From positions 29,760,001 to 29,824,000 of the forward strand of contig OY740807.1 in the NCBI GenBank assembly GCA_963514005.1: a stretch of DNA of 64,000 nt, written 5' to 3'. The DNA is from Raja brachyura (lineage: Eukaryota). Numbering within the stretch: position 1 is the stretch's first letter; each line of letters begins with the position of its first letter. The position numbers were made by a program, and so were the translations under genes. Of this stretch, positions 45,701-62,388 are shown piece after piece. Under the pieces are notes generated by a model. The model saw nothing but the letters and a program-made list of their open reading frames with translations. It was not told the DNA's origin and searched no databases.

Positions 45701-46614
45701 ACATGAACAAGGCAAACAACTTCTCATCTCCCATCCCACAACCCACCCACGCCAACAGATATTCAGTTATTTCTACCATATCTGTCATCATCTCATGAAC
45801 ATCCACCCATCTCTTGCCATCTTTGCAATTTCCAGTAACAGAAGTGGTTATTTAACACTTTAGCACATTCTCCCATTCATTGAGATCAAAGCTAATCCGT
45901 GATATTAATCTACATCCCTCAATGTATTTGGTTATCAAATATCAGAGATAAATTTACGTGATCTAATATCAATTGTTGGCTGCAAACAAAAGTTTTGAAT
46001 ATCTACCACCCCTTTCAATGTTAAGTAAAATAGCTCTAAATTATAAATTATTCCTTTTAGTACTCGGCTAGCAAACCAGCAGAAATAACACCTATCCCAA
46101 TTGCCTTTAATGTCTGAAAAATATTGATCAAATGATCCCTACCCTAAATTGCTGGAATCCAGCTTCATCCTCTGTGACCTCGAATCGCAAATGAACCATG
46201 GGAGCCCAATTATCCGGGAAAATGCAGCAATATTCCTTGTACATGTCCTGCGGCACACACAACCGCTCACAATATTTCACGTGTGATCCAACTGGGTTTG
46301 CACTGCTTTACTATAACTTCTTTTCTCTGGTGTTCCAATCACCCAGATCAAAAACCCTTTTCTGCAGCTGACCACGACATGTTAATCATTCATTTTGTAT
46401 ATGTGATATATCGAACATGTAAAACAAAATAAGTTAAAAACAAAGCAAAATAATAATAAAATGCGCTAATTTGCATGAGCTTCCTAGGTACTTTGGACAT
46501 ATCGCTTCCAGCTTTTCACCATTTACAACTCTTTTTTTGGCTTAAAGCAGAAATTTATTTACCACACTTTGTCATTCAGTTAGTTTTTGCAACGAAGGGC
46601 GTTGCAATACGGAA

Positions 46615-52790: not shown

Positions 52791-52898
52791 CGTTAAGACA
52801 TGGAACTCTCAATTATGCATGTGACTCTAGATGATTCAATGTCACCAGAGTCAGTTTGAGAACTGGCAATATGGAATTCAGAGGTTTACCACTGTGCT

Positions 52899-53040
52899 TT
52901 TCTCTCATCTTACGTATGACGTGCACAGCCTAAAGTTGTTGGACAGCTTGTTCTATTTGATCTTATTTGATTGTGCACGCCGGGTTGATTGCATTAGTTG
53001 AAACAGGGCGGACCACGTGAAGGTTGCAATCTTCCACCCC
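52899..53040 (-). mobile_element. 142-bp non-autonomous retroelement headed by the HDV-like ribozyme
   Basis: Exact 11-bp TSD accactgtgct (52888-52898 and 53041-53051); purine-rich 3' tail AAGAUGAGAGAAA; internal 10-bp stem (52918-52927 with 52972-52981). Confidence 0.8.
52987..53040 (-). ncRNA. Minimal HDV-like (CPEB3-type) self-cleaving ribozyme
   Basis: GGGGUGG aa GAUUGCA ACC UUCACGU GGU CCGCCCU GU uucaa C UAA UGCAAUC: P1 (7 bp, G1-U wobble), P2 (7 bp), P3 (3 bp), L3 UUCACGU, catalytic C in CUAA; P4 essentially absent. Confidence 0.85.
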
Positions 53041-53649
53041 ACCACTGTGCTACATTGGTAAAACAGCCATAGAGTCAGAGCTATGTTGAACGGAAAGAAA
53101 AGTTTTGCCCAACTCAGCCATGCCAAACAAATTACCTAACCAAGTTAATCCCACTTTCCTGAGTCCGGTGACTGCTATTTGAAATTCTCTGTATAATTTT
53201 TAATATCACAATTACTTATGGTGATTGTAACACCTACATGTATGATCCATATGATTGCTAAATGCCATCAAAATAAAGTTTAAAAAGTGGACAGCACCAT
53301 ACAGTAAATATAAACAGAGTTTAAAAAAAAACAATTAAAAAAACATACTTCTGTCTGAAGAAGGGTCTTGACCCTAAACGTCACCCAATCCTTTACTCCA
53401 GAGATGCAGCTTTTTGTGTCGTACTTCGGCAGTAGTTGGCCTGATTTCCCTCAGCAAAACCATTTTGCTGTCTTCATCTGACCACTAGAGGGACTTCATA
53501 ACAACAAAATTATCAAAGTTCTCTCTCCCTCCTGGGGAAATGTGGATGAAAATCTTCAAGTTAATCTACTCAAAATAATACATTACAACAAAACAAAGTA
53601 ACATTTCAATATTTTACAAGTTCAATTTGGTGGCTTTCTCATTCACTGA

Positions 53650-56174: not shown

Positions 56175-56714
56175 TTACACTGTTCTGTAACGGTCAAACA
56201 AATATTTTCTCTATGCAAGGCCACCATTGTCTTTGACTCTGAGGCAGTTTCCCTCGAGCAGCATCTGCAGTCTCTTGTAGTGCCACCATTTTCTCATCAT
56301 TCATCCACAAAAGGGACTCACTCCAAATATTTGAAGAGGTCTGGCCTCTCGAAGCATTACCAGATCCATCCAGATCAATTGTTGAGCTTCAAAAGATACA
56401 TCCTCAATGTGCACAGAGCTGGTTAGTAGAGAATTCTCTGTGCTAACAAGCCAAACAGCAACCAAAACAAACCCAAAACCTAGCCACATCTCTCATTGCT
56501 CTCTGTGGAATCCTGTCACTCCCCAATTGTCTCCTGCATTTCTTTACTATACATCATTTTGAAGTTCCAATTAATGGGTGTAGTTTATTTCCCATTTTTA
56601 ACTACAATCTGGGTTATTATTTTATATAATTTCCAATTTTATAAAATTAGATTTCCCATGAATGTATACAATTTCAAATCCTTCACATATAAATATGCCA
56701 AACAATGTTCATCC

Positions 56715-57332
56715 TTCATCCAGGAAGGAGAGAAACGGAGGACGAACCCCTTGCCTCTCAACTCGTGCCCACTGAACGCAGCCAGGGACTGGGAAATGCG
56801 TGTTGACCTAGGCCAGAGGCTTTCGTTCCCAGTTGAAATCGCAGTTACCAACCTGCGACCAGACCTCGTTCTCTGGTCCAACTCCTGTCGCCGTATTTTC
56901 ATCATTGAGCTGACGGTCCCATGGGAGGAGGCTGTGGACAAGGCTTATGAAAGGAAAAAGCTTCGATATTCAAACCTTGCAGCAGAGGCAGAGGAGAGAG
57001 GTTGGAAGGTAAGGGTGTGTCCAGTGGAGGTAGGGTGCAGGGGCCTTGTAGCCAGTTCGACCGCAAGGCTCCTGAGGGAAGTAGGAGTCAAAGGGCAGGC
57101 ACAAATAAGGGCAATAAAATAACTTGCCAATGCCGCCGAATGGAGCAGTCACTTGCTGTGGCTGAAGAGGAAAGATGCTGTCTGGGCTGCCACGTGACCA
57201 TCTAGAGGCTAACAATAAGACACACACCCAGGTCTGATCAACCTGTGGTGGGCCTGCCTCGACTGAGGGTGTCTTGTGATAAAAGGCCAAAACACCCAGT
57301 GACGTTGAGATACACAACTGAAGATGTGTCTG
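56715..57332 (+). mobile_element. HERO-like (R2-group) non-LTR retrotransposon 3' end, REL endonuclease
   Basis: DWEMRVDL...LRPDLVLWS...IIELTVPWEE...YERKKLRY...PVEVGCRG; in-frame stop at 57120-57122. Confidence 0.85.
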
Positions 57333-61086: not shown

Positions 61087-61543
61087 TTATGGATTTTTTA
61101 TACAAATTGCATCTAATGCATTCTTCGCATCATCGATCTGCTGCTGCAACCTCTCGCGCATTGCATCTGTTGTTGCTTTCCTTAATCTGCCTTCCATTTC
61201 TTCAATTACTGCACGGTAACCCACCACATTGTGGAATACCCGAACAGCACGATCGCCACTGGAAACTAAGAACCTACTGTTGATGTCAAAAGCCAAGCCA
61301 GCAATGTCCTCACCGTGCACATTTAGAAATTCTTCCTCCTGCCTGCCTGTCTTGGTGTTGTGCATCGTGATGTTGAAGCCATTGGAAATAGCTACCACCC
61401 TGGCATCAGGAGAAAGAGCGATTCGGCAAGAATCAGAAACATCGCACTTCATAGTTAACAACAAGTATGGATCTTGCTGCTGTTTGTACTGAACATCGGT
61501 GTCCCACAGCTTCCAGGTGCCATCTTTTGAAATTGTTGCCATT
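61087..61543 (-). CDS. TBL2: Transducin beta-like 2 (WD40 protein), last coding exon
   Basis: Acceptor tttcctggatAG|A ATG; (R)MATISKDGTWKLWDTDVQYKQQQDPYLL...CRIALSPDARVVA...VHGEDIAGLAFDINSRFLVSSGDRAVRVFHN...RERLQQQ* matches the TBL2 C-terminus. The previous exon is not seen in the window. Confidence 0.95.
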
Positions 61544-62388
61544 CTATCCAGGAAACAAATAATGATATATTTTTGAAATGACCATCGTCTGTATTTTTGT
61601 TAAAACAATATTTTAGACCAGAATCCATAACATTAGCATAACATTCAGACCAATCACTAATTTCTTTTTTTAATCATTCTTGCCCATAAATTAATAATTT
61701 ACTCAATTAATCCAAATTACCAGCTAAAATTGTGACATTTTTTGCTCTTGGCACTGTAATAATCTTGCTCGAAAAACCAAATGCAATCAACAAGTGGAAG
61801 CAGCCAAATGAAATGACACACTTAATAGTCACACCTAATATTAGTTCACATTTATCTTTTGAAACCATATGACATTTTTGTATGCTAGGCGAATTCTCTT
61901 GTCTAAAGCACGATAAAACATATTTAAGAGTCGTTTCTCCTTTGGATTTTTCGTCAGACATCTTAATGTATGCCCTCTGGTTTTCAAATCTACTACCGAT
62001 GAGAACAGTTGCCTTTTGTTTACTCCAATGGATCCTTGAAGAATGTGAATGCTCTACGAAATTTTCTCTCAACCCATTCTTTTCCAAAGTGAACACCACC
62101 AGCTTCTCCAGATTACCCATTAAATAAAGCCCCTCTTCTCTGGAACCACTCGTGAATTGCTTCTGCACCCCAAAACCTTCACACTCGCTCCAAAGAGAAG
62201 TATTGAGAAATGGAAACAAAATTCTAGCTGTGGATTGCACGTTTTACAAAAATTCAATACAACGTCACTGCATATAGTGCCCTCCATAATGTCTGGGACA
62301 AAGACCCATCATTTATTTATTTGCATCTGTACTCCACAATTTGAGATTTGTAATATAAATAATTACATGTGGTTAAAGAGCACATTGT

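Follow-up and report, generated by a model that had tools for sequence, protein, structure and literature searches.

A 142-nt minus-strand insert in Raja brachyura is probably an internally deleted Vingi-type LINE copy headed by a predicted HDV-like ribozyme

The window analysed here is a 64-kb stretch of DNA, and it carries on its minus strand, at 53040-52899, a 142-nt insert that is probably a Vingi-type LINE copy reduced by internal deletion and no longer autonomous: about the first 77 and the last 41 bases of its parent, likely freed by its own 5' HDV-like ribozyme and likely copied by a parent protein that would recognise the stem pairing the two ends. The sequence matches its description in the first-pass annotation, which had read the insert as a promoterless SINE cutting itself out of host transcripts. 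Its parts are as follows.

53041-53051, minus strand: upstream copy of the 11-bp TSD, adjoining G1
52987-53040, minus strand: predicted P4-less fold of the HDV-like ribozyme type, 54 nt long (element nt 1-54), with predicted cleavage 5' of G1 at 53040
53034-53040, minus strand: 5' strand of P1, partner 53011-53005, with the G1.U36 wobble
53025-53031, minus strand: 5' strand of P2, partner 52993-52987
53012-53024, minus strand: P3 (3 bp) and the 7-nt L3, which is identical to L3 of the Rfam CPEB3 consensus
52998-53004, minus strand: G37-U38 (P1.1 side) and the 5-nt linker replacing P4, from the descriptor parse and the family alignment
52994-52997, minus strand: J4/2, with the predicted catalytic C44 (52997), the variable N45, A46 and A47, from 70 copies compared
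52964-53040, minus strand: segment (nt 1-77) inherited from the 5' terminus of parent LINE family P, 87-93% identical to the heads of P copies L331, L379-L383 and L388
52972-52981, minus strand: 5' arm of the end-joining stem, from the parent 5' UTR, by folding and parent comparison
52946-52963, minus strand: junction (nt 78-95), absent from the parent ends and resembling a short local duplication
52905-52945, minus strand: segment (nt 96-136) inherited from the 3' terminus of parent P, containing the parent's likely stop codon at 52932-52930
52918-52927, minus strand: 3' arm of the end-joining stem, from the parent 3' UTR, by folding and parent comparison
52899-52911, minus strand: decayed (AAG)n tail, by sequence inspection
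52888-52898, minus strand: downstream copy of the 11-bp TSD, by sequence inspection

The ribozyme layout that had been claimed from the letters (P1, P2, P3, the G1.U wobble, L3 and the GU after P1) parses on the minus strand, and G1 directly abuts the 11-bp TSD (53041-53051 and 52888-52898), as had been stated. P1 has 7 bp, including the G1.U36 and U5.G32 wobbles, P2 has 7 bp and P3 has 3 bp; all 17 of these 17 pairs are formed in the insert, together with the three J4/2 bases. The insert thus reads as a nested double pseudoknot of P1, P2, P3 and P1.1 with the G1 wobble, in which P1.1 would, on a reading of the sequence only, be of the one-pair CPEB3 type. The C in J4/2 is followed by N-A-A, a motif also present in the heads of sister families. 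There is no P4 domain, the 5-nt linker bringing the total to 54 nt, as in the minimal HDV-like ribozymes described in the available part of PMC10879173, and no tRNA gene of the kind adjoining theta ribozymes was found by ARAGORN between 52000 and 54000. The earlier proposal that P4 has shrunk to about 5 nt holds, and derivation of the linker UUCA from UUCG is plausible, with G at nt 42 in 57/70 copies. The purine tail noted at the same time is a decayed (AAG)n, and the second stem-closed domain is also borne out: when the 3' domain is folded, nt 60-69 pair with nt 114-123 (z -2.0; 6/200 shuffles did as well).

A structure descriptor of the HDV fold found one match in the 64-kb window, the insert itself, and none in 60 dinucleotide shuffles, both strands being searched; since the descriptor takes part of L3 from this insert, the figure gauges rarity and not discovery. 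The window holds a single occurrence of an 18-nt core, where 0.02 were expected. The only Rfam match of the insert is a weak one (HDV-F-prausnitzii, 16 bits against a cut-off of 44), and no tRNA or other Pol III-type family (7SL, 5S) was found by Rfam in its head. The folding energy of the whole element is ordinary (z -0.28), as expected, because the pseudoknot is beyond the reach of the folding program.

The insert belongs to a large, dispersed family. Exact matches in the 2.7-Gb genome number 9,386 for a 3' pattern and 7,462 for a ribozyme-core pattern, and 0 for the reversed controls, confirming the high copy number that had been anticipated. The overlap of the two pattern listings, counted by eye over the first 26.9 Mb of contig 1 (49/86, or 37/74 minus a tandem block), gives an estimate of ~16,000-19,000 copies. 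Ninety loci were picked by middle or 3' patterns, the latter giving a 3'-anchored sample, and one duplicate was removed. Of the remaining copies, 70/89 begin at nt 1-4, so that the 5' ends pile up at G1 as predicted. TSDs of 9-14 bp flank the family; among those 70 copies the TSD ends at G1 in 31 and within 1 nt of it in 46, and none was found in 17. The 142-nt element, with its many dispersed copies and TSDs, has no coding capacity. The first base of the TSD is a purine in 50/53 of those found and the base preceding G1 is a pyrimidine in 51/70, reflecting a target or priming preference.

Within the ribozyme, the common variants among the copies lie at nt 8 (J1/2), N45, linker nt 42 and nt 32, all tolerant positions, and at CpG sites. 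C44 is retained in 66/70 copies, and C44T appears in 4 of the first 100 ribozyme-core matches listed; N45 is T in 37, G in 18 and A in 12 of the 70. At nt 32 the parent has a U5-A pair and the mini-element U5.G. Subfamilies differ in the middle and the tail. In samples that favour well-preserved copies, A has diverged from its own majority by 3.2-3.8%, B by 3.5% and D (4 copies) by 5.4%; subfamily D carries the parent's letters.

Three further observations concern mini-elements. The stretch between the P2 arms is apparently inverted in L129, L131 and L192, an arrangement that template switching at the inverted repeat of P2 could produce. Twelve near-identical copies lie 7-27 kb apart in G000:C1:14796000-14952000 and probably ride on a tandem segmental duplication. 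A second mini-element family (L214 and L216-L222; for example G000:C40:20942155, minus strand) is ~165-180 nt long with an (AAG)n tail, a P4-less head nearer to CPEB3 (35-37 bits) and a 5'-3' stem of its own. Loss of P4 seems to have happened more than once.

The parent, family P, is a ~3.1-kb LINE with a single ORF encoding APE and RT, and it has nt 1-77 and nt 96-136 in common with the mini-element. It follows that the insert is an internally deleted non-autonomous LINE and not a Pol III SINE. In L331 the first 77 nt match the mini-element and then run into the endonuclease ORF, and in four P copies (L380, L383, L386 and L395) the head (nt 1-77, 87-93%) occurs together with the tail (nt 96-136). 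The expected partner LINE sharing the 3' tail therefore exists, whereas the idea of an independent SINE that borrowed a LINE tail gives way to one LINE whose 5' and 3' ends were fused by internal deletion. To judge by its letters, the junction at nt 78-95 probably arose as a short local duplication. In L380 a 12-bp TSD abuts G1. Candidates for P number 63 for the 5' kilobase and 736 for the 3' part; the best 30 of the 736 all run into the element tail sequence, as read from the printout, and 22/30 hold the exact 8-nt core. The P ORF starts ~110 nt downstream of G1, and the TAG at element nt 109-111 is likely its stop codon. No intact copy was seen among the P copies read, all of which are broken.

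P and a 939-aa APE+RT protein of Anolis carolinensis are colinear, with 40-45% identity in RT and no RNase H match in the Anolis protein; the APE match of P itself falls below the Pfam cut-off. Pfam gave no RNase H match in P0019, P0001 or the C-terminal parts of V3 and V4, and P can be aligned to residue 906 of P0019, <100 nt from the P tail. Single-ORF APE elements without RNase H are what the available text of PMC13708176 calls Vingi, and the Vingi label of the parent rests on this architecture and on sister heads matching named Vingi 5' ends. An RT tree of 29 rows groups P with V6-V8 (94/89), three families of the same genome; most of its deep forks are open and it contains no named Vingi or Ingi protein. 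The route to P ran from RF00622 matches to the full-length LINE L223, a 2.9-kb V1 copy with a TSD, then through a protein search for further families to L331. Three negative-letter patterns designed to catch the parent yielded, among the matches listed (100/337, 100/287 and 57/57), mutated mini-element copies and nothing else; they missed P because it shares more or differs at positions fixed in the pattern. The tail of the mini-element is not shared by 20 Vingi-type copies of V2-V5 or by the V1 copy L223. RTE, guessed as partner from the tail, was dropped after P was found. Searching metagenomes with the Anolis protein turned up a single distant locus. The V4 protein at L276:883-2616 (minus strand) is 86-89% identical to eel and cyprinid proteins (P0001 and P0002), which suggests that it passed horizontally between bony and cartilaginous fish. 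A parent-family LINE is interrupted at L379:2370-3043 by a processed ferritin copy (Pfam 1e-35) that carries poly(A).

The fold of the head extends to the sister families. The same descriptor parses the heads of P, V1, V3, V9, V11 and the second mini-element, with linkers of 5 to 46 nt, and by eye the heads of V2, V4, V6, V7 and V8 are laid out in the same way. When 8 family heads were aligned, 91.9% of cells were paired and 11/17 pairs showed compensatory change; 0/500 shuffles equalled this and slid controls reached 36-49%, in a shuffle test that ignores kinship and with V3 out of register in P1. The covariation predicted for P1-P3 is thus present across families, whereas within the family helix changes are one-sided only (70 copies). 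The occurrence of this fold at the exact 5' terminus of families with unlike sequence is the best evidence for G1 as a processing site.

One arm of the stem at nt 60-69/114-123 comes from the parent 5' UTR and the other from the parent 3' UTR, and the second stem is therefore predicted to represent long-range pairing of the parent's two UTRs. We compared, in 11 families with a head-tail link at at least 1 locus each (some represented by 1-3 copies), the duplex between the 30 nt after P2 and the 36 nt before the tail. Pairing within the own family averages -16.7 kcal/mol against -9.7 kcal/mol across families (sd 3.3), and 0/200,000 label permutations were as good, at two window sizes. The own 3' end is the top partner in 8/11 rows, V3, V4 and V6 having an equally good cross-family partner. 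When full-length elements were scanned along their length, the own 3' window was best in 2/11 copies and within the top 3% in 7/11, with up to 78/730 windows better in the worst case. The pairing is thus family-specific but not uniquely strong. A literature search, judged from titles, found no report on long-range pairing in non-LTR or Ingi-type elements, nor on Vingi UTR pairing.

In many Vingi-type LINE copies the head lies in inverted orientation next to a 3' piece (L199/L257, L205/L240, L213/L262, L200-L202, L355 and L362). The inverted V1 heads end at 81-92, within 12 nt of the arm end at 80 (6/6), those of V11 at 106-131, within 36 nt of the arm end at 95 (4/4), and the single V5 head at 91 (arm end 84; 1/1); two of three P heads end at 72 and 76 (arm end 72). 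Seven others end away from the arm (V4 at 338 and 504; V9 at 389 and 2025; V6 at 69, 184 and 500), inverted heads of these three families coming mostly from the endonuclease search, which is biased to long pieces. It is possible that the breakpoints behind the 5' arm are an in vivo footprint of the stem, from which we infer that a paired 5' end would be held near the target during priming.

Transcription of the family was followed in one stranded polyA run from a related organism, 6% of which was read, giving 810 family reads; the exon of a minus-strand WD40 gene set the strand call, with the first mate opposite to the RNA (4.25 vs 0.1). A search for RNAs holding the 142 nt listed none; words of it occur in 23 contig runs, 3 of which were used beside the raw run. 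Reads of both orientations occur, and 309 reads pass G1 into other flanks. No molecule ends piled up at G1 in that portion of the run. C44T was found in 6/202 sense reads versus 38/310 antisense reads; the sense reads mostly keep C44, the opposite of what would be expected if dead ribozymes survived. Sense depth is 0.45-0.67 of antisense, but this ratio varies just as much among other repeat-rich bins of the window. These data show that family copies are co-transcribed and that many are uncut, and they give cleavage no support. The insert lies ~6 kb downstream of the WD40 gene transcript on the same strand (transcript contig to 58984), and its own flanks had no reads in that portion of the run. 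The last coding exon of the WD40 gene, which we take to be TBL2-like, flanks the element at 61087-61599 (minus strand), and on the other flank an expressed exon-like stretch at ~46140-46310 (minus strand) belongs to a further minus-strand transcript. An open frame at 56484-57122 (plus strand) had no Pfam match; judging by a motif, it presumably resembles the restriction-like endonuclease end of an RLE retrotransposon.

On the favoured reading, a host read-through transcript would supply the RNA, ribozyme cleavage 5' of G1 would create a defined 5' end, and the 5'-3' stem would then form in the RNA and act with the tail as a cis-signal for target-primed reverse transcription by a protein that family P would have supplied. 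Such a signal would explain why the deletion retained both ends. The pile-up at G1 is by itself no proof of cleavage, since a 140-nt RNA would be copied full length whatever made its 5' end. The same element could also owe its 5' end to an internal Pol II promoter at G1, the fold serving mainly as a protective cap or a protein-binding or translation module and cleaving slowly or incidentally. The head of L1Tc and NARTc combines an internal promoter with a ribozyme (PMC3383444, partial text), in R2 the ribozyme fold shields the 5' end (PMC13708176, partial text), and the uncut read-through with no RNA ends at G1 fits as well. We nevertheless regard this as quite unlikely, because the catalytic C, the G1 wobble and the P1.1 bases are constant while the helix letters vary across families, and because the heads share no primary-sequence promoter motif beyond the fold.

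A different question is which protein copied the young subfamilies, which might have outlasted P and been served by a sister Vingi family (V2, V3 or V4). Subfamilies A and B (3.2-3.8%) look slightly younger than the P copies, whose divergence averages 4.4% in the best 30 and ~6.5% in copies found by the 5' part, and the tail of B has 13 nt in common with that of V2. Set against this, the samples are biased to well-kept copies and the ranges overlap (3.2-5.4% for the subfamilies; lowest P copy 2.7%), there are 736 candidate P 3' ends, and the tail of subfamily A is the P tail unchanged. Copying by a sister family is thus an unlikely account, and we retain P as the probable source of the protein. 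Almost no weight can be given to an ordinary Pol III SINE with a head that is ribozyme-like by chance. The weak Rfam match and the unremarkable folding energy would suit it, but the head is not derived from tRNA, 7SL or 5S RNA: it is the 5' end of an APE+RT LINE sharing nt 1-77, which already refutes this origin, and 5' and 3' termini come from the same LINE. Added to this are the lack of a tRNA gene, the covariation of the fold across families and the 0 descriptor matches in shuffles.

The earlier comparison with the CPEB3 ribozyme (RF00622) is right for L3 and the GU after P1, which are identical; overall the likeness of the insert is loose and below the Rfam cut-off, and it is the sister LINE heads that come close. 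Insert and CPEB3 ribozyme are alike in the fold, L3, the G-U after P1 and the G1.U wobble, whereas the letters of P1, P2 and P3 differ and P4 is absent from the insert. A search of the genome with RF00622 gave 41 matches, 32 of them above the cut-off. Neither the window copy nor copies L004 and L045 have a match, whereas 7 sister Vingi heads pass the gathering cut-off of 35 bits, with scores of up to 65.8 and 60.0 bits. The head group closest to CPEB3 comprises 8 loci and is linked to V5 by one internally deleted copy, L403.

The supplement of PMC5786205, in the part available, prints the 5' ends of Repbase Vingi-2_Gav, Vingi-4_Crp, Vingi-2_SPur and Vingi-1_BF. The sister heads match these named Vingi 5' ends, and by our own count Vingi-2_Gav is identical to the Rfam CPEB3 consensus at 52/54 positions outside inner P4. 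In the alligator SINE2-1_AMi, from the same partial source, the P4 stem is the same as in the CPEB3 consensus. The 3' part of that element, given as unknown there, consists of a short hairpin and then a tail like those of V2 and V11; SINE2-1_AMi may therefore consist of a tRNA head joined to a collapsed Vingi 5'-3' module. A Vingi fossil, X12_LINE, survives in the human genome (PMC5753468, partial text), and domestication of such ribozymes from mobile elements has been proposed in general (PMC7761336, partial text). From these sequence comparisons, the mammalian CPEB3 ribozyme likely came from a Vingi-type element. CPEB3 is nowhere mentioned in the available text of PMC5786205, whose section 23 names six ribozyme-bearing LINE clades without Vingi. 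Our literature search did not find a Vingi source of the CPEB3 ribozyme, Repbase, Dfam and patents lying outside the search and perhaps holding part of it; judged from titles, it found nothing on Vingi together with ribozymes, and Bendixsen 2021 has no mention of origin or of the retrotransposon terms searched.

Taking these strands together, we lean towards a broader reading, in which Vingi LINE RNAs would be organised around a single cis-module: a 5' HDV-like ribozyme and, directly behind it, an arm pairing with the RNA's own 3' end across 3 kb. The 140-nt element would be this module laid bare, its P4-less ribozyme being of a type described so far almost exclusively in phages, and the CPEB3 ribozyme of mammals would descend by domestication from the 5' end of an ancient Vingi insertion. 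If true, the element offers a natural minimal template of ~140 nt for the LINE clade used in RNA-only gene insertion (the Vingi-1 platforms of PMC13708176, partial text), and the rule for such a template would be to retain ribozyme, 5'-3' stem and tail. It would also give a structural reason why bipartite derivatives arise only in some LINE clades, a point left open in section 23 of PMC5786205 as far as available, a place and a role in eukaryotes for the P4-less HDV ribozymes, for which the available part of PMC10879173 calls both origin and function undetermined, and a named source for the CPEB3 ribozyme.

Ribozyme-headed bipartite elements are known from other hosts (NARTc, RIME and SIDERs, PMC4035085 and PMC3383444; R2 SIDEs, PMC3414825; review PMC6765202; all consulted as partial texts), and by analogy the present element, with its predicted ribozyme, would work like NARTc or an R2 SIDE. 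The trypanosomatid NARTc (from L1Tc), RIME (from ingi) and SIDERs are likewise short and non-coding, and combine the 5' and 3' ends of a LINE, in their case and probably here one of the Ingi group (PMC4035085 and PMC3383444, as available). Their 5' end is an HDV-like ribozyme cutting at +1, whereas that of the insert is a predicted fold; the insert further differs in its vertebrate host, its predicted 54-nt P4-less ribozyme and its length of ~140 nt. The R2 SIDEs of Drosophila also join a 5' ribozyme to the parent 3' end by internal deletion and depend on the parent protein, but they are rDNA site-specific and rare and have an RLE parent, whereas the present family is dispersed in thousands of copies with 9-14 bp TSDs and has an APE parent (PMC3414825, as available). 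Non-autonomous derivatives of Vingi-1_EE (Kojima et al. 2011, via the available part of PMC5786205) are bipartite and ORF-less, as is the insert, and descended from an RNase H-less Ingi-group parent, as the insert probably is; section 23 of that text mentions neither a 5'-3' stem nor a Vingi ribozyme, both of which are predicted here. Minimal HDV-like and theta ribozymes are alike in lacking P4 and in being very small, yet nearly 99% of the minimal ones come from Caudoviricetes phages and theta ribozymes flank tRNAs (PMC10879173, as available), while the insert heads a vertebrate retroelement with no adjacent tRNA. Relative to the known bipartite LINEs, what appears novel from sequence comparison is the absence of P4 from the head, the stem that joins the two ends and the connection with CPEB3.
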